From positions 1,216,001 through 1,280,000 of the forward strand of contig OZ241326.1 in NCBI GenBank assembly GCA_965199855.1: DNA of 64,000 bases, written 5' to 3'. Numbering within the stretch: position 1 is the stretch's first letter; every line of letters begins with the position of its first letter. Shown here piece after piece: positions 995 through 27,415 of this stretch. Both the position numbers and the translations under genes were made by a program. The notes under the pieces are model-generated. The model was not told the origin of the DNA. It saw nothing but the letters and a program-made list of their open reading frames with translations, and made no database searches. Origin of the DNA: a bacterium (GTDB lineage Bacteria > UBA8248).

Positions 995-1639
995 TCAGGC
1001 TCCGCCGTTTCGGGGTTTATTGCGCGCGGCCTTGATGAGTTTTTCAAGGCAGCAAATCGCCCGGAATAGGCTTTCCGAGCGGTTGACCGCGACTTCGGGC
1101 CGCCATTTGTTCCGGACATACTCGATGAGCCGCGATGCATAGGCGGCTCCCACGCGGCGACCGCTTCCTTCACGAGGCGCCATATCCCGCTTGATGGCTG
1201 GCCGACGGGAACGCCGAGCCAGATTCACCATATCGTCCTTTGGTTTTTCAAGGTTCTCAGGGTTTTCGGATATCCGATTCGCCGACACGCTTAAATAAAC
1301 TGAGAGGGCTTTGGCGTCCGCCATCAGCCATGCCTCGACTTCTCGGACGGCGATCCGAAAGCAAAGGTTGGGCGCGGGATGAGGCAGCCACTTATCGCGC
1401 AAGGCCGGCGCGCAATCCGCGTCGCGATCGAGATCGATCAATACGAGCCATGGTCCATGAATGGAACGAGCTGCATTGTTGAAGCAGTCGATCTGCTTGA
1501 ATAGGTAAGGTTTTCCGGTTCTTCCATATACTTCGCCCGTCGCGCCGCCGACATGCGCGATGAGCTTCTGCGCGACCGCCTCGTCCAAGTATCCTTCAAC
1601 GGCGACGGTTATGCGCGGAACCACTTCCGGCTCACGCAT
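995..1639 (-). CDS. DUF4276-like/TOPRIM-fold protein, partner of ABC ATPase
   Basis: N-terminal VAVEGYLDE, DLDRD (DxD), REVEAWLMAD, C-terminal RSESL; overlaps ATPase stop. Confidence 0.65.
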   Translation of the reverse strand: MREPEVVPRITVAVEGYLDEAVAQKLIAHVGGATGEVYGRTGKPYLFKQIDCFNNAARSIHGPWLVLIDLDRDADCAPALRDKWLPHPAPNLCFRIAVREVEAWLMADAKALSVYLSVSANRISENPENLEKPKDDMVNLARRSRRPAIKRDMAPREGSGRRVGAAYASRLIEYVRNKWRPEVAVNRSESLFRAICCLEKLIKAARNKPRNGGA

Positions 1640-4893: not shown

Positions 4894-6087
4894 ATGGCGA
4901 AATTCACCGATCCCATCGAAGTGCGCGGCCTGCGCGTGAAGAACCGCATTCTCATGTCCGCGATGACGACCTCGCGCGCGGAGGAGGACGGCGCGCCCTC
5001 CGCGTGGAGCCGCGCCCACTACGAGGCGCGCGCCCGGGGGGGAGCGGCGGTCTGCTTCACCGAGGCGACCTACGTCAACCAGGAGGGCAAGGGGTTCCCG
5101 AACCAGCTGGGAACCCACGAGGACGCGCTCATCGAGCCTCTGGGCGCGCTCATCCGGGCGGTGGAGGCGGCGGGCGCGCCCCTGGCGGTTCAGCTCTATC
5201 ACGCCGGCAGGACGGCGCTCGGCGCCATCACGGGCATGGAGCCCGTGGGGCCCTCCCCCATCCCGCACCCCACGGAGGATGAGGTTCCCCGCGAGATGAG
5301 CGAGGCGGAGATAGGCGCCGCCGTCCGCGCCTACGGCGAGGCGGCGCGGCGGGCGCGCGCGGCGGGCGCGCGGTTTCTGGAGATTCACGGCGCCACCTGG
5401 TATCTGTGCCAGCAGTTCTTCTCCCCCGCCTCGAACCGGCGGACGGACGGCTACGGCGGAACGCTTGAGGGCAGAATGCGCTTTCCCCTCGAAGTCGCGC
5501 GGGCGGTGCGCGAGGCGGCGGGAGACGAGGTGGTCCTGAGCTACCGCCTGGGGCTTCTCGAACCCTTCGAGAACGGCTTCACGGTGGAGGACACCCTCGC
5601 CCTCGCCCCCGCGCTCGTGGAGGCGGGGGTGGACGTCCTGCACTGCTCTCGGAACGCGCGCGTGGGGCTTCCCGTCGGGCCCGATCTGTACAACCCCGCC
5701 TTCGCCCGGCTGCGCGCGGCGGTGGACGTTCCCCTCGTCGCCAACGGGGCGGCCTTCGAGCCTGAGCGGGCGCAGGCGTATCTCGACGCGGGCGCGGATT
5801 TCGTGGGCGTGGGGCGCGCCATGCTCACCGACCCCGACTACGCGAGCAAGGCGATCGCGGGGCGCGGCGCGGAGATTCTCCGGTGCGTCGAGTGCAAGCC
5901 GTGCGCCTACATGACGCAGAGCCGGTGTCCCGACGAGGCGTATCCCGGGGGCGTTCCCGCCTCCATGCGCGAGATTCTGAATATCGCCTCGAGCATGGCG
6001 GGCGGCGGCTACGCGCCCACGGCGAAGAAGCGCCTCACGAAGGACGCGCCCGTGGAGGCCCAGCCCGGGGAATCCTCCATCTCCTGA
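4894..6087 (+). CDS. NADH:flavin oxidoreductase (Old Yellow Enzyme family)
   Basis: KNRILMSAM, QLYHAGR, EIHGATWYL, SNRRTDGYGGTLEGRMRF, C-terminal CVECKPC. Confidence 0.9.
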   Translation: MAKFTDPIEVRGLRVKNRILMSAMTTSRAEEDGAPSAWSRAHYEARARGGAAVCFTEATYVNQEGKGFPNQLGTHEDALIEPLGALIRAVEAAGAPLAVQLYHAGRTALGAITGMEPVGPSPIPHPTEDEVPREMSEAEIGAAVRAYGEAARRARAAGARFLEIHGATWYLCQQFFSPASNRRTDGYGGTLEGRMRFPLEVARAVREAAGDEVVLSYRLGLLEPFENGFTVEDTLALAPALVEAGVDVLHCSRNARVGLPVGPDLYNPAFARLRAAVDVPLVANGAAFEPERAQAYLDAGADFVGVGRAMLTDPDYASKAIAGRGAEILRCVECKPCAYMTQSRCPDEAYPGGVPASMREILNIASSMAGGGYAPTAKKRLTKDAPVEAQPGESSIS

Positions 6088-7291: not shown

Positions 7292-7580
7292 GGGCGTCCT
7301 CCCGTTTCGCGGACGCGGCGGCCTGCGGCGCGCGCCCTCGCGTTTCTCCCGACGTCGTTTCCCTGAATATACCACGCTCCGGCGCCGGACGCGAGGGGGA
7401 ATTTCCGCCCGGGCCCGCGCCGGGGTTCTTCGTTCGGGAGCGCGCCCCCGGCTTCTCCGCCCACGCCACGGGCGTTCCGGGCGCGTGTCTTCGCATGACG
7501 CTGAAATTCCTCTCGGAGGCGACCAGGAAGGGAAGGCGACCCCCTCATATGCAAGGAGAATTTATCTTTCTATATCGAGA

Positions 7581-22081: not shown

Positions 22082-22326
22082 GCCCGGTTGCGTAGGGACA
22101 TGGATCGCAAGCGAAGCGGGCGGGGCGGACGACGCCCTCCGCTTCCGTTCCCGACAGCCTGAAAGCGCGGCCTTGGCCGTCATGCGCCCCCATCCGCGCG
22201 GAAGCGCCTCGCGCGAAAGAAAGCCAAGGTCGGGGCGCGCCTCCGCTCCCTGAAAGCGCCCGGGCGTCGTTCCCCTTCCGCAACGTGATGGTCGGCCTTC
22301 TCGCGCCCGCCCGCGAGGGTTCTCGC

Positions 22327-23787
22327 ATGAAGCCCAACTTCAGAAACCGCACCCTGTGGACGGGGGACAACCTCGACATTATGCGGGGGATGAACTCGGG
22401 CGCGGCGGATTTGATCTACCTCGACCCTCCCTTCAACTCGAACCGGGACTACGCCGCCCCCATCGGCTCCGAAGCCGCGGGCGCCGCCTTCAAGGACACC
22501 TGGACGCTGAGCGACGTGGACGAGGCGTGGCACGGCGAGGTCGCCGAGCAGGACCCCGCGCTCTACCGCATCCTCGACGCCGCCGGCCACGCCCACGGCA
22601 GGGGCATGAAATCCTACCTCATCATGATGGCCGTGCGCCTGCTGGAAATGCGGCGGCTCCTGAAGCCCTCAGGCTCCATCTACCTGCACTGCGACCCCAC
22701 GGCGAGCCACTATCTCAAGACGCTGATGGACGCCGTGTTCGGGGCGAGGAACTTCCGAAGCGAGATTGTCTGGAAGCGCACTTCGAGCCATAACCGCGCC
22801 AAGCGGTGGGGGCCGATCCACGATACGATTCTGTTCTATTCGGCGGCGGGGAAATCCACCTGGAACCGCGTTTTGCAACCATTGGACGAGGGCTACGTCG
22901 AAAGATTCTATCGCTACGAAGACGACAGAGGGCGCTACCGGGTCGGCGATTTGACCGGGCCGGGATTGCGCGACGGCGACACCGGCCGGCCCTGGCGGGG
23001 AATCGACCCCTCGACCCGCAGCCGCCACTGGGAATTGCCGCCGGATCGCGCGTTGCCCGGCTGGTTCGTCTTCCCGGAAGGCTACTCGAAGTTGAGCGTA
23101 GGGGATCGCCTGGACGCGCTGGACGGACAGGGCTTGATCTACTGGCCGAAGAAGAAAGGCGGAATGCCCACCTTCAAGCGCTATCTGGGCGAGAACAGCG
23201 GCGCGCCCGTCCAGGACATGATCCTCGACATCAAGCCGCTTTCAGCCGCCGCCATGGAAAATGTGAGCTACCCCACCCAGAAGCCGCTCGCTTTGCTGGA
23301 GCGCGTCATCCGCGCGAGCTCGAACGAGGGCGACGTGGTGCTGGATCCGTTCTGCGGGTGCGCCACCGCCCTGGTCGCCGCCGAGCGGCTGGGCAGGGAG
23401 TGGGTCGGCATCGACCTCTCTCCGCTCGCCGCGAAGCTGGTGAAGTCGCGCCTGGAGAAGGAGATGCGCCTTTTCTACGACGTGCATCACCGGACGGACA
23501 TTCCGAGAAGGACGGACCTGGGCGAGCTGCCCAGCTACAAGACCCACAGGCACACGCTCTACGGCAGGCAGGAGGGCCTGTGCGCGGGCTGCCGCGTGAT
23601 GTTCCCCTTCCGCAACATGACGGTCGACCACGTCGTGCCGCGCGCGAGGGGCGGGAGCGACCACCTGGAGAACCTGCAGCTGCTCTGCGGCGCCTGCAAC
23701 GCCAAGAAGGGAACGCGCCCGCACGAGGCGCTCATCGCCGACCTGGAGCGGGAGGGGCTGCGCCAGCCCCCGCCCCCCCGCGCATGA
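22327..23787 (+). CDS. beta-class N6/N4 DNA methyltransferase fused to C-terminal HNH endonuclease
   Basis: IYLDPPF, YPTQKP, LDPFCGCAT; CAGC..VDHVVP..GG..HLENLQLLCGACN. Confidence 0.9.
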   Translation: MKPNFRNRTLWTGDNLDIMRGMNSGAADLIYLDPPFNSNRDYAAPIGSEAAGAAFKDTWTLSDVDEAWHGEVAEQDPALYRILDAAGHAHGRGMKSYLIMMAVRLLEMRRLLKPSGSIYLHCDPTASHYLKTLMDAVFGARNFRSEIVWKRTSSHNRAKRWGPIHDTILFYSAAGKSTWNRVLQPLDEGYVERFYRYEDDRGRYRVGDLTGPGLRDGDTGRPWRGIDPSTRSRHWELPPDRALPGWFVFPEGYSKLSVGDRLDALDGQGLIYWPKKKGGMPTFKRYLGENSGAPVQDMILDIKPLSAAAMENVSYPTQKPLALLERVIRASSNEGDVVLDPFCGCATALVAAERLGREWVGIDLSPLAAKLVKSRLEKEMRLFYDVHHRTDIPRRTDLGELPSYKTHRHTLYGRQEGLCAGCRVMFPFRNMTVDHVVPRARGGSDHLENLQLLCGACNAKKGTRPHEALIADLEREGLRQPPPPRA

Positions 23788-24611: not shown

Positions 24612-24685
24612 TCCTTGTTGTCTCTACGCATCTCGTAAGGTGCGCTGATTGCTGATACGGGCTTCTTTGGTTTAGGCTCCATTGT

Positions 24686-25285
24686 ATGGGGACTAATGAA
24701 TTAAGAAAGAGAGATGTATGGCAGGATATTGGTGGGGCAAGAGCGACTGCGGCCGCACGCTCTTTTTTTAGCGTATTTCAAAACAGTTTTCAGGGAACAA
24801 ACTTTAGAATTAGGGCGAATCCACAAGAATTCAGAACTGTTTATGTGAATTACCCTCTTTCAGATGAAACGCTATCCGAAATATACACCCCATCTGCTCC
24901 AATCAAAAGACATGGCATAGCGCCGGACTATGCAATCGAGCATATAGAGTCAGGGAAGGCTCTATATGTGGAAGTAAAAAGACAGGATGGTTGGGTAGAA
25001 GGCAAACCCAGAAGTGCGGGCAGAGGAAATGTTCACGAAAGGTGTTGTAGATACTTCACTCCGGGATTGCTAAAGATTTTACGCGAAAAAGGTAAGATAC
25101 ATGAAAGCGCCTTGCCTTTTTGGGCAGTCTTTCAGGGCGACATAACCAGAGACCCGTGCAGGGTAAGGGAAATTACTTGTTGGTTTGACATATACGCTAA
25201 TCATTGCTTCTTTTGGCGCGATATTAAAGACCCGACTCAGTTGATAGAGCATTTCGATCAAAACCTGAAACATCTTCTTTGTTAG
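24686..25285 (+). CDS. MunI-family type II restriction endonuclease
   Basis: GIAPDYAI..YVEVKRQDGWVEG..GRGNVHERCC..FTPGL..FQGDITRDP resembles R.MunI; AT-rich. Confidence 0.8.
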   Translation: MGTNELRKRDVWQDIGGARATAAARSFFSVFQNSFQGTNFRIRANPQEFRTVYVNYPLSDETLSEIYTPSAPIKRHGIAPDYAIEHIESGKALYVEVKRQDGWVEGKPRSAGRGNVHERCCRYFTPGLLKILREKGKIHESALPFWAVFQGDITRDPCRVREITCWFDIYANHCFFWRDIKDPTQLIEHFDQNLKHLLC

Positions 25286-25967
25286 CAATAGCGTTGTCGT
25301 GAAACGTCTCTAAACCCCAAGACTCCCAGCCGTTTCTTTTTGCTCTGGCAAACAGTTCGATTTTTTTCTGAGCGGGAAACATTTTTTCTATGTTTTCGGC
25401 TACTTGGATTGGTTTTTCGCTATGTCTTGCTCTTGGCGAGCTTATCAGCTGTTTGATGTTTCTAGCTCCCCTTGGCTTGGGTATTCGCCCTTTCTTGAAC
25501 AGGAGACACAATTCACAATAAGAAAGGGTGTATTGCCCCGGATTGTGCATCATTTTGTTCCATACGAACGCCACGGTTTTATATTCAAAACCCCAAGCAT
25601 TGCCAAGTTCCATGGCTTGTTGCAAATGCGGATTAGTTGTCCACAAAAATAAAAGGCTGTCATCTTCGGCTATCGAGGCTATGTTAAGTTTTTTCAATTC
25701 CGATGTTTTTATAGTTGGGTATTTGAACGAGGCGGCACTGACAAAAACATCTTTTCGCCACCCATCATTTTCTGCGATGGTTCCCGACTTATCAAATTGC
25801 AATTTCCCGTTATAGTGCCAAGGTGGATCGGCGTATAGAATTGAAAACTTTGAATCTGGCAATGGGGGGTAAATTTCCCCAAGAGTGTTTGTCTTCGTTT
25901 TTTTAATGACTTTTTCACCGTAGATGGCGTAACCAGACCTCACTTGTTTTGTGCTCGAACCTTTCAT
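25224..25967 (-). CDS. MT-A70 family adenine methyltransferase (M.MunI-like)
   Basis: ILYADPPW, LFLWTT, AWGFEY, HSEKP, IELFAR. Confidence 0.9.
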   Translation of the reverse strand: MKGSSTKQVRSGYAIYGEKVIKKTKTNTLGEIYPPLPDSKFSILYADPPWHYNGKLQFDKSGTIAENDGWRKDVFVSAASFKYPTIKTSELKKLNIASIAEDDSLLFLWTTNPHLQQAMELGNAWGFEYKTVAFVWNKMMHNPGQYTLSYCELCLLFKKGRIPKPRGARNIKQLISSPRARHSEKPIQVAENIEKMFPAQKKIELFARAKRNGWESWGLETFHDNAIANKEDVSGFDRNALSTESGL

Positions 25968-26115
25968 AATTCACCTCTTGTTGAAGGTTCAATGCTATGG
26001 CATCAGCTTATTCACATGCCCAATTTGCCAAACACCTTTGGCCTTAATTCGATAATATGTTTTATTGTATTTTTCTCCAACCCGATTTGTGCTAGCATAT
26101 TAGATGTCGGGGGAT

Positions 26116-26185
26116 TGGTGGAGCGCCGGGGAATCGAACCCCGCGAGCGTGGGCTCTAAAACCTGCCCGGGAACCTCCGCGCCCC
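26116..26185 (-). ncRNA. tRNA-like/tmRNA-TLD-like element with Ala acceptor stem
   Basis: GGGGCGC/GCGCTCC-ACCA acceptor with G3.U70; T arm CGGGG-TTCGATT-CCCCG; no D stem or canonical anticodon arm. Confidence 0.6.
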
Positions 26186-26294
26186 ATAAATCCCGCTTTG
26201 TCGCTTGCCGGCTCAGGGACGAACTGAAACCGGCTAGCGATTCGGCCCTACCCAGGAACGTTCTGGGTAGGGCTTCAAATCCCCGCCCACGCAA

Positions 26295-26323
26295 AACATA
26301 GCCCCTTGCGGGCTCCCTGTCAA
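26295..26323 (-). promoter_or_regulatory. sigma70 promoter upstream of tRNA-like element/MTase
   Basis: TTGACA-17 nt-TATGTT on minus strand. Confidence 0.6.
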
Positions 26324-26402
26324 GGCGCTAACGCTCATGTTGTCGATATTGTTGTTAAATTTTACCCACCAAATCAGTTAAGTTTTATTTTGTTGGCAGG
26401 GG

Positions 26403-26431
26403 TTGACAGGGGGAATGAAAACCCGTATCGT
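26403..26431 (+). promoter_or_regulatory. sigma70 promoter for 26456 gene
   Basis: TTGACA-17 nt-TATCGT, then GGAGGT RBS. Confidence 0.6.
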
Positions 26432-26455
26432 GGTGGAAGGGTGGGAGGTGTCGCT

Positions 26456-27265
26456 ATGAATAATGATGCAACAGAAGGTCCTAAAAAGAAGCGTGCTGGC
26501 CGGAGCCCGAGTTATCCTGTAATAGATATTCAAACAGCCTTGAAGCGCGCCCAAGAACTTTACGATCAAGCTCAGCATCACTATTCCCCGGTGGATATCG
26601 TGGCAAAACATTGGGGATATAATCCTGGAAGCGGATTGGCGGCTAGCACTATCGCGGCCCTGATAAGGTATGGGTTTCTGGTAGCTGAAGGTGCGGCGAA
26701 AGAGCGCAAAGTCCGCCTTACGGATTTTTCCCTCGATATAATCAGGGATAAAAGAAGGGCCTCTGCGGAGCGAGATCGGAGGATCATGGAGGCTGCATTA
26801 AGGCCGAAGATTCATGCTGAAATATATGAAATGTATGGATATGATTTGGTGTCAGATGCAGATCTCTTATATGAATTGGAGAGGAATAAGAACTTCACGC
26901 CTAGCGGAGCAAAAGAGTTTATCTCTCAATATAAACGGACATTGGAGTTCATAAAGGGCTTGGGGGTTGAAGAGACCTTCTCTGGCGAAGGCGCTGATGA
27001 ACAGCCAGTAAGCGCACTGCCAACAGAGCATCAAACCGATGAAACGGGTGGGGACATTCCTTCTCCTCCAAAAGGGGGGAATGTGCAAACAATAAAGATT
27101 CCCATGCTGGAAGGCGTGTGGCCCACTTTAACCGCACAATTCCCGATGAACAAAGAGGACTGGGATTATATGATAAAAGTCTTAACAACAATGGAACCAA
27201 AGTTGGTTAAAGCAGAACCCCAATTTCAAGAGGTTGCAACAGAAGGAGAGGCGGAGAATCCCTAG
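26456..27265 (+). CDS. hypothetical protein, probable winged-helix DNA-binding N-terminus
   Basis: RSPSYP..LKRAQELY..AKHWGY..IAALIRYGFL..RLT helical/wing pattern; AT-rich; RBS before ATG 26456. Confidence 0.7.
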   Translation: MNNDATEGPKKKRAGRSPSYPVIDIQTALKRAQELYDQAQHHYSPVDIVAKHWGYNPGSGLAASTIAALIRYGFLVAEGAAKERKVRLTDFSLDIIRDKRRASAERDRRIMEAALRPKIHAEIYEMYGYDLVSDADLLYELERNKNFTPSGAKEFISQYKRTLEFIKGLGVEETFSGEGADEQPVSALPTEHQTDETGGDIPSPPKGGNVQTIKIPMLEGVWPTLTAQFPMNKEDWDYMIKVLTTMEPKLVKAEPQFQEVATEGEAENP

Positions 27266-27415
27266 AGTAAAACGAAAAATTTTTTGAGGGTTGGATGGCA
27301 TTGAAGAAGAGCTTTCGTGCCCGTGTGTGAGCTGTGTGAGAAGGCGCCGCCATAAGCGAGGCGCCGTTTTTGCTTCTCCTTTATTTTTCTATTCCTACGG
27401 AGGAACGACAAGGAA

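Follow-up and report, generated by a model that had tools for sequence, protein, structure and literature searches.

A transfer RNA-like (tRNA-like) RNA of 70 nucleotides (nt) is encoded on the minus strand of the 64,000-nt stretch of bacterial DNA analysed here (the window; positions 1,216,001 to 1,280,000 of contig OZ241326.1, assembly GCA_965199855.1, lineage UBA8248) and belongs to a widespread RNA family that has no entry in Rfam 15. The element is a tRNA-like RNA on mobile DNA, reduced here to the RNA gene and a divergent gene, B, whose product is the conserved partner of the RNA. Altogether, 58 distinct copies from many phyla were collected, in which the pairs G1-C72, G2-C71 and G3:U70 are invariant but for one exception per pair at most; acceptor pairs 4 to 7 covary, as do the T stem and a miniature D stem. 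A neutral G-U pair would quickly become G-C, and alanyl-tRNA synthetase (AlaRS) is the known reader of G3:U70; the retention of the wobble in 57 of the 58 copies, beside four acceptor pairs that vary, is thus the strongest single clue and points to recognition by AlaRS. The reading that we favour, with confidence and doubt evenly balanced, is that the window carries a transposon-derived, non-decoding tRNA mimic that is matured by ribonuclease P (RNase P) and recognised by AlaRS, i.e., the RNA gene left by a mobile module that has degraded.

Earlier work had noticed tRNA-like genes of irregular form on mobile DNA and left their role open. What can now be defined is a fixed AlaRS identity set in an RNA unable to decode by normal rules, together with an invariant order of genes, a large family of unnamed partner proteins and clear transposon boundaries, and a long-standing loose end becomes testable with ordinary tools. 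For annotators, it matters that such loci escape tRNA, transfer-messenger RNA (tmRNA) and Rfam scans, and that adjoining restriction-modification (R-M) genes are not functionally tied to the RNA.

Structure and family of the RNA

Read on the minus strand between 26323 and 26116, the element consists of a promoter, a hairpin of 11 base pairs (bp), a nested stem and the 70-nt tRNA-like domain (Table 1). An earlier note, made from the letters alone, had described a promoter-preceded, structured tRNA-like RNA with an alanine identity set, and this description is borne out, as its sequence elements are all present and the 201-nt stretch folds with a z-score of -3.05, a value equalled in one of 200 shuffles. 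Furthermore, a covariance model built from other members of the family (model R1) gives the window copy 60.7 bits. The section connecting the 5' acceptor strand to the T arm measures only 35 nt, and under a constrained fold the sole hairpin possible in the D region is GGA-GGU-UCC, with 3 bp and a 3-nt loop, which makes this the shortest D region of the set. The absence of a D stem, as proposed in the earlier note, is nearly right for the window copy, where a 3-bp hairpin can still form; most relatives have a covarying D stem of 4 bp. The central loop of the window group reads UUUAGA or CUUGAGA, and in the window it comprises 6 or 8 nt.

The copies of two sister species (genomes G008 and G015) separate the pairings that are kept from those that are not. 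The CGGGC/GCUCG pairing that abuts the T arm is retained as CGAGU/GCUUG in G008 and as CGAGC/GCUCG in G015, and acceptor pair 5:68 changes from C-G to U-A in G008, a compensatory change like those by which the central stem differs. In the leader, the structure of hairpin 2 is kept in all three species, and hairpin 1, which is absent in G015, persists in G008, where a compensatory change has turned an A-U pair into G-C. The GGGC/GCCC stem that had been proposed within the domain is retained in neither sister species, and neither has an equivalent of the suggested pairing between the 5' GCGTGGGC and the internal GCCCACGC. From the GGGATT copies thought to pair beyond the CCA, it is the proximal one (26194-26189), facing ATCCC, that finds support, with GAGATT/AATCTC at the same position in genomes G003 and G004. 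The trailer is conserved to about 26062 in the three-species alignment; in the RNA family at large, the 5' leader is not conserved.

ARAGORN calls neither a tRNA nor a tmRNA at the element, although the same program finds the true tmRNA of the genome, and no Rfam 15 model reaches its gathering score there, the tRNA model (RF00005, gathering score 29 bits) included. Below threshold, the tmRNA model (RF00023) reaches 23.5 bits against a cut-off of 47, with only the two ends aligned, and the mascRNA model 25 bits against a cut-off of 42.5. No match to Y RNA-like (YrlA) or DUF3800 RNA motifs was obtained at E <= 10 between 25900 and 26500, the presence of these models in the Rfam 15 copy being unchecked. 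The RNA resembles the tRNA-like domain of tmRNA, as had been noticed earlier, in its 7-bp acceptor stem with G3:U70, discriminator A, CCA, canonical T arm and reduced D region. However, in addition to its short middle section, it has no tag reading frame, resume codon or pseudoknots, and an identity with tmRNA was rejected on these grounds and on the score. With canonical tRNA-Ala it shares G1-C72, G2-C71, G3:U70, A73 and the T arm, but it has none of the loops of such a tRNA, namely the D loop (8-11 nt), the variable loop and a 7-nt anticodon loop in which an alanine anticodon ends in GC; the constrained fold is not a cloverleaf, and canonical tRNA identity was likewise rejected.

Allo-tRNAs are the closest described comparison. 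In the passages of Mukai et al. 2017 (PMC5389517) that concern them, their 12-bp acceptor branch is divided 8/4 or 9/3 and their variable arm is long, and some of them, including some with G3:U70, lie near toxin-antitoxin genes and a transposon-related frame. According to the same passages, G3:U70 is the main AlaRS determinant, and irregular tRNAs carrying it are alanylated and do decode in E. coli; parts of this paper and of a review (PMC7609411) suggest that some allo-tRNAs are unused in translation and belong to transposable elements. As far as these sources describe them, allo-tRNAs are thus similar to the present family in being non-canonical tRNA-like genes, patchily distributed in environmental bacteria, in some cases with G3:U70 and with a link to mobile elements. 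In contrast, the acceptor and T stems of the present family are split 7/5, its D arm has 4 bp and a loop of 4 nt, its central loop is non-canonical and a variable region is missing, and the allo-tRNA identity of the window copy was rejected on its 7/5 split and missing variable arm. Neither this RNA nor protein B nor the IS1-type unit is described in those passages of PMC5389517, its supplements, which fell outside the scope, being a place where related loci may be shown; in the wider literature searched, with subscription journals and supplements outside its scope, no description was found of the 7/5 miniature form, of B, of the small protein C that accompanies it, or of the unit.

A remnant of an attachment (att) site was also considered and rejected, as no tRNA or tmRNA end of the host is reproduced exactly by the 3' half and the 5' acceptor strand covaries in relatives. 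The host genome, a single 3.04-Mb contig, has an ordinary 360-nt tmRNA with the tag ADNELALAA, located 185 kb from the element and different from it at the 3' end. The sole other similarity within the genome is a 28-nt stretch with a 93% match to the 3' part of tRNA-Lys(CUU), in which the T arm is identical and two of the seven acceptor positions differ. Since the same T arm occurs in family members of other phyla, it is a trait of the family and no copy taken from the host.

Further copies were sought with a pattern derived from the window and sister copies, which was run against 185,579 species genomes and against viral sequences. It matched 59 stretches in the former and two viral contigs, 61 loci in all, of which 47 passed a filter for pairing of the 5' strand with the 3' strand at at least six of seven positions and 14 failed; four of the passing loci, archaeal tRNA-like sequences with G3-C70, were excluded. 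Counting the window and four genus copies, this RNA-first set comprises 42 distinct sequences, whose records are labelled Acidobacteriota, Desulfobaccales, Dehalococcoidia, Planctomycetota, Gemmatimonadota, Nitrospinota and candidate-phyla bacteria, among others. The alanine identity pair G3:U70 stands in register in 41 of them, the exception (locus L073) having a 1-nt deletion. In an alignment of 17 of these sequences (A4), acceptor pairs 1-3 are GC, GC and GU throughout, both sides change at acceptor pairs 4-7 and at the first T-stem pair, and 97% of the cells pair, a level reached by none of 500 shuffles; when the partners are slid, pairing falls to 50-74%.

Constrained folds reveal a common plan in which the 7-bp acceptor stem leads, after a single linker base, into a D hairpin, with the central hairpin and the T arm following. 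The D hairpin typically has 4 bp and a 4-nt YGGN loop carrying GG, is reduced to 3 bp and 3 nt in the window and is lost in one subgroup; the central hairpin has 5-8 bp with bulges and is followed by 0-2 nt before the T arm. Its loop mostly measures 7-10 nt, often reading YUUUACAC or CUCUACAC, and many such loops contain YU followed by UUA or CUA, with C often the base after the would-be anticodon. For this central hairpin no single consistent alignment was attained, and it was therefore left unpaired in model R1, which scores family members at 38-82 bits and ordinary tRNAs at 28-40 bits. The window copy has the features of the modelled family, namely G1-C72, G2-C71, G3:U70, A73, a short D hairpin with a GG loop, an abutting central hairpin and a T loop of the form UUCRANY. 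Many relatives lack an encoded CCA. In L039 and L041, a strong intrinsic terminator follows directly after the RNA, indicating that the RNA is a gene in its own right and not just a leader.

Several observations on individual copies may be added. An ATAGCA- or TATTAGCA-like motif lies 10-25 nt past the 3' end of the RNA in L032, L054, L080, L040, L070, L057 and others; it is found across subfamilies, also where no transposase lies downstream, and fits no promoter spacing tried. A cyanobacterial contig (L037) bears two copies of the RNA 2 kb apart on its minus strand (5171-5241 and 7355-7427; 38.7 and 52.7 bits). Additionally, L064, L067 and L068 have near-identical RNA and flanks in assemblies labelled as different phyla (RNA at about 4141-4214 in L064), with surrounding frames that we take to resemble type I-C cas genes.

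Transposon context and protein B

Clustering of the open frames within 3.5 kb of the 42 RNA-first loci identified recurring neighbours among which the methyltransferase suggested by the earlier note does not figure; family-wide, these neighbours are B and a transposase. At 20 of the 42 loci, a protein of about 273 amino acids is encoded directly downstream on the same strand, and in most of these the RNA ends 15-50 nt upstream of its start. The protein is an IS1-type DDE transposase by Pfam (DDE_Tnp_IS1, 3e-8, above the cut-off of that model), with a further match to NCBIfam transpos_IS1 (6e-17, 62 bits) that stays below the 100-bit cut-off of the model, and its frame is uninterrupted in most loci. 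Homologues of B occur at 13 of the 42 loci, upstream and divergent in twelve and downstream in L040, and a protein of about 100 amino acids, C, is encoded beyond B in 13 of 42. Less frequent companions are a DUF5343 protein (4 of 42) and a helix-turn-helix protein with a small partner (six loci of Acidobacteriota); the remaining 13 loci have no recurring neighbours, several of them standing beside other mobile-element genes or at contig ends.

In 6 of 17 transposase-bearing loci examined, and in 9 of 32 examined loci of a second, B-derived set described below, C, B, the RNA and the transposase all lie between terminal inverted repeats that begin with GGTAGTG, an arrangement that places the RNA gene inside the transposon and not at its target. 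The enclosed units measure 2.1-4.2 kb (e.g., 2264 bp in L054, 2598 bp in L083 and 4242 bp in L107), and in one genome assembly the two loci L042 and L056 resemble each other, with 76% identity, over the conserved core and its flanks (71 nt before it and 1110 nt after it). Intact relatives thus resemble IS1-family insertion sequences in their single-frame DDE transposase matching IS1 models and in terminal repeats starting with GGTAGTG, whereas the window has neither; it retains the RNA and B only, C being absent from it as well. In the literature searched, no IS1-type element was found that has a tRNA-like RNA gene, B and C as fixed internal parts. The predicted structure of C has a predicted local distance difference test score (pLDDT) of 92 and gave no Foldseek match in the PDB.

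Protein B defines a large family. Among 1.84 billion representatives, its profile matches 6657 clusters (50% identity) at E <= 1e-3 and 2563 at E <= 1e-30, none with a name in the sources examined, and B itself has no family in Pfam, NCBIfam, PADLOC or PHROGs. The AlphaFold model of B (mean pLDDT 80, above 90 for residues 20-170) comprises a winged-helix and helical N-terminal domain, a disordered linker at 177-207 and a small beta-beta-alpha C-terminal domain. Foldseek against the PDB returned nothing at E <= 0.001; a wide structural search gave the DNA-recognition domain of FokI (Z 8.4, 166 residues aligned), BrxA (Z 7.4), SspB and the recognition domain of N.BspD6I (both Z 7.1) and many MarR-type winged helices (Z about 6). 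Since Z values near 8 may reflect a mere common arrangement, B is read from its model as a probable DNA-binding protein and no more than that. A relation to DUF5343 is a lead only, given an hhalign probability of 5.8% (E = 0.0065) and a nearest Pfam-bearing Atlas cluster of DUF5343 at 0.90.

The association between B and the RNA was examined independently of the RNA by fetching 77 metagenome loci (302 kb) with a B peptide pattern. In these B-first loci, model R1 yielded 15 hits at E < 1e-3, all on the strand opposite to B and 128-255 nt upstream of the B match, and two additional hits with filters off; in the window, G1 of the RNA lies 271 nt from the start of B, in the same layout as in the loci of relatives. 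Among 16 distinct B-first copies, 98% of the cells pair, G3:U70 is present in every one, and compensatory changes occur at 11 of 16 pairs, including all four of the D stem; none of 500 shuffles attained any of these measures. ARAGORN reported 15 other tRNA-like genes in the same divergent position, labelled Asn GUU, Val UAC, "Pro UGG" and "Leu UAG" (87-88 nt), "Ser ACU", Ala and "Stop UUA". In all, a tRNA-like gene with support stands within roughly 450 nt upstream at about 37 of the 77 B loci, eight of the 77 having less than 300 nt of sequence on that side; a transposase follows beyond the tRNA-like gene in 23 and C after B in 12.

Five tRNA-like genes stand just upstream of B on its own strand, namely those of L120, L126 and L128, which are tRNA-Sec-like, and those of L104 (tRNA-Stop) and L100 (tRNA-Val); a weaker tRNA-Sec-like match in L111 (E 0.48) was left out of this count. 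The genes of L120, L126, L128 and L104 may be allo-tRNAs, in which case B would be tied to several kinds of irregular tRNA. Furthermore, L156 has a tRNA-like sequence with an apparent 9-bp acceptor between transposase and B, inside the 527 nt upstream of B on the minus strand, which the detectors did not call.

Proposed mechanism and alternative explanations

The ancestral element is envisaged as an IS1-family transposon with a DDE transposase, the RNA gene just upstream on the same strand, a divergent B and often the small protein C, all within terminal inverted repeats; in the window, this module would have been reduced to RNA and B, and a MunI-type R-M cassette would have landed beside them later. 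The RNA is proposed to be transcribed from its own strong promoter, after which RNase P would remove a leader of about 100 nt at G1 (26185), and trimming of the trailer would expose the encoded CCA (26116), or the CCA would be added in relatives that do not encode it. The product may then be recognised by AlaRS through the invariant G3:U70 and A73, giving a stable, chargeable tRNA mimic that would act in trans to serve the element, with B as its most plausible partner; where the element is intact, the RNA would also head the transcription unit of the transposase. The vestigial D arm, the missing variable region and a central loop that is not a 7-nt anticodon loop make it most likely that the RNA is non-decoding.

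A bolder proposal, which we offer tentatively and hold to be possible rather than probable, is that a non-decoding miniature tRNA of alanine identity is an integral, selected component of an IS1-type transposon, working as a cofactor or sensor alongside the FokI/BrxA-like B and the small C. If this were true, the RNA could tie the expression or activity of the transposase to the status of tRNA processing and aminoacylation, or manipulate host translation, and would add an RNA-dependent layer to DDE transposon biology that is distinct from guide-RNA systems.

Several points weigh against the reading of the window copy as an alanylated tRNA mimic of transposon origin. No transposase lies beside the RNA, and a single transposase query of the entire genome returned none (no profile search was run), nor are there matches in the window, at up to three mismatches, to the terminal inverted repeats of the intact type; the transposon origin of this copy therefore rests on the homology of B and the RNA. 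The acceptor statistics of the RNA-first set are partly built in by its pairing filter, so that the independent B-first test weighs more, although the alignment of the latter was fitted to the model and leans towards the structure. Covariation of the central hairpin appears only within subgroups, and 40 of the 77 B loci have no supported tRNA-like gene by the detectors used. Finally, canonical-looking tRNAs fill the same slot, with Asn GUU in L133, L151 and L164 and Val UAC in L158, and thus leave room for a generic tRNA-type role without alanylation.

These last loci bear on the principal competing explanation, which we regard as unlikely but more credible than the others, i.e., that the RNA is a tRNA-type processing signal in cis, whose cleavage by RNase P or RNase Z sets the 5' end of the downstream mRNA and for which charging is irrelevant. 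The message in question would be that of the transposase in intact elements, the methyltransferase occupying its place in the window by accident. Canonical-looking tRNAs in the slot fit this explanation, as does the close same-strand spacing between RNA and transposase, and no terminator is evident before the transposase in the L032 group or between the RNA and the methyltransferase gene in the window. However, a pure cleavage signal would not need a wobble that persists while its neighbours covary, the RNA has its own terminator in L039 and L041, and in G008 and G015 it occurs without any downstream gene. The explanation by a signal in cis thus accommodates the canonical tRNAs and leaves the fixed G-U pair unexplained, which the AlaRS-recognised mimic accounts for.

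It is less probable still that the window copy is a non-functional relic of a dead transposon, the family being perhaps functional elsewhere. The missing transposase and inverted repeats, the presence of the module in only three of 23 genomes of the genus and a D region shorter than in any other copy of the set agree with decay. Yet all helices are intact, the R1 score is well within the range of the family, two divergent promoters each match 10 of 12 positions, B is an open frame of 269 codons, and the copies of the three species differ by compensatory changes in the acceptor and central stems.

Improbable, too, is a role in decoding, in which the RNA would place alanine at stop codons or elsewhere, as a suppressor or mistranslating tRNA serving recoding or acting as a toxic RNA. 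ARAGORN reads L097 as a tRNA-Stop with anticodon UUA, the UUA and CUA triplets of many central loops are suggestive in the same sense, and the decoding by irregular G3:U70 tRNAs in E. coli, as reported in the cited passages of PMC5389517, provides a precedent. On the other hand, the central loops mostly have 7-10 nt (6 or 8 nt in the window copy), often with C after the would-be anticodon, the D arm has 3-4 bp and a 3-4-nt loop with no variable region, the window copy is called by neither ARAGORN nor the Rfam tRNA model, and the transposase frames are mostly uninterrupted. Least probable of all is the idea, taken from the earlier note, of a miniature tmRNA, in which a domain charged with alanine and bound by SmpB would enter stalled ribosomes or compete with tmRNA. 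This would suit the alignment of both ends to the tmRNA model, the shared acceptor, G3:U70 and T arm and the loss of the D stem in one subgroup, but is opposed by the missing tag frame and pseudoknots, a score far under the cut-off, a normal tmRNA elsewhere in the genome, a real, covarying D stem in most family members and the absence of any link of the family to smpB.

The chromosomal slot and neighbouring genes

The RNA and B lie in a low-GC (guanine plus cytosine) island at about 24680-27400 (GC 0.43-0.58 against about 0.69 around it), which occupies the spacer separating the genes for an enoyl-CoA hydratase and a nitroreductase and holds, in addition, genes for a MunI-type restriction enzyme and an MT-A70 methyltransferase. 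These two genes form an R-M cassette of 1.3 kb (24686-25967, GC 0.43) and are convergent and slightly overlapping. In the sister species G008 and G015, the same slot contains the RNA and B and no R-M genes; the cassette is thus a later, unrelated insertion, and the link to the methyltransferase, for whose mRNA the earlier note had proposed a processing switch, is accidental.

Within the genus, the RNA and B are found at this slot in three of 23 genomes, whereas the spacer is empty (126-160 nt) in eight, including the closest relative, G001 (129 nt), and has other or unresolved content in the other twelve. In a sample of 51 genomes of the phylum, four have the RNA at E <= 1e-6, all of this genus, G015 falling just below the cut-off. 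Among the three species, the proteins B are about 55% identical, and the flanking nitroreductase DNA is 84-87% identical. The comparison of occupied with empty sites did not disclose exact insertion boundaries or a target duplication of the island.

Table 1. Features of the RNA, gene B and neighbouring genes; positions refer to the window unless a locus is named
Feature	Position	Strand	Basis or remark
Sigma-70-like promoter of the tRNA-like RNA, TTGACA-17-TATGTT	26295..26323	-	Promoter scan, 10/12 matches
Promoter boxes of the RNA: -35 TTGACA; 17-nt spacer; -10 TATGTT	26323-26318; 26300-26295	-	
5' leader of the RNA	26186..26288	-	Hairpin 1, hairpin 2, conserved GCGACAAAG stretch, GGGATT (26194-26189) pairing with trailer
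Hairpin 1, 11 bp	26273-26263 with 26255-26245	-	Leader
Hairpin 2, nested stem	26240-26201	-	Leader
tRNA-like RNA, 70 nt	26116..26185	-	Sequence, constrained fold, model R1 (60.7 bits), covariation in relatives
Acceptor stem GGGGCGC/GCGCTCC, 7 bp, G3:U70	26185-26179 with 26126-26120	-	
Vestigial D hairpin	26178-26170	-	Within tRNA-like RNA
Central hairpin	26169-26144	-	Within tRNA-like RNA
T arm CGGGG-TTCGATT-CCCCG, perfect	26143-26127	-	
Discriminator A73	26119	-	
Encoded CCA	26118-26116	-	
Conserved 3' trailer	26060..26115	-	ATCCC (26115-26111) pairs with leader; TATGCTAGCACAA motif at ~26100-26087
Divergent sigma-70-like promoter of gene B, TTGACA-17-TATCGT	26403..26431	+	Promoter scan, 10/12 matches
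Gene B, 269 amino acids: tandem winged-helix N-terminal domain, disordered linker, small C-terminal domain (predicted)	26456..27265	+	Conserved partner of the RNA
MunI-like restriction enzyme	24686-25285	+	Pfam E = 3e-74
MT-A70 methyltransferase	25224-25967	-	Pfam E = 7.5e-22
tRNA-Sec-like gene, ~92 nt, beside B in L120	2849-2941	+	Rfam 32-35 bits, cut-off 47
tRNA-Sec-like gene, ~92 nt, beside B in L126	1526-1617	+	Rfam 32-35 bits, cut-off 47
tRNA-Sec-like gene, ~92 nt, beside B in L128	787-878	+	Rfam 32-35 bits, cut-off 47
tRNA-like gene upstream of B in L104	2839-2932	+	Same strand as B; ARAGORN tRNA-Stop

The spacer between the hydratase and nitroreductase genes looks like a recurrent landing site. 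Across the corresponding loci of the genus (L168-L190), three genomes have an insert of about 320 nt in common, and others have spacers from 400 to more than 1300 nt. In G015 (L012, about 1390-1470), the last 28 or so nt of the hydratase gene are directly repeated about 60 nt downstream, beside the island, which may be a trace of site-specific insertion.

The loci of G003 and G004 look like arrays of odd tRNAs in low-GC DNA. In G003 (L014), an 88-nt tRNA with a CUA anticodon (1406-1493, minus strand), labelled tRNA-Pyl by ARAGORN, follows directly after the tRNA-like RNA, and in G004 (L013) the tRNA-like RNA lies between two called tRNA-Ala genes on the plus strand (1410-1485 and 1973-2048). 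In the window, just upstream of the hydratase gene, a plus-strand frame at 22285-23787 encodes a 500-amino-acid N6/N4 DNA methylase (Pfam 5e-38) with a C-terminal HNH nuclease domain (Pfam 2e-12).

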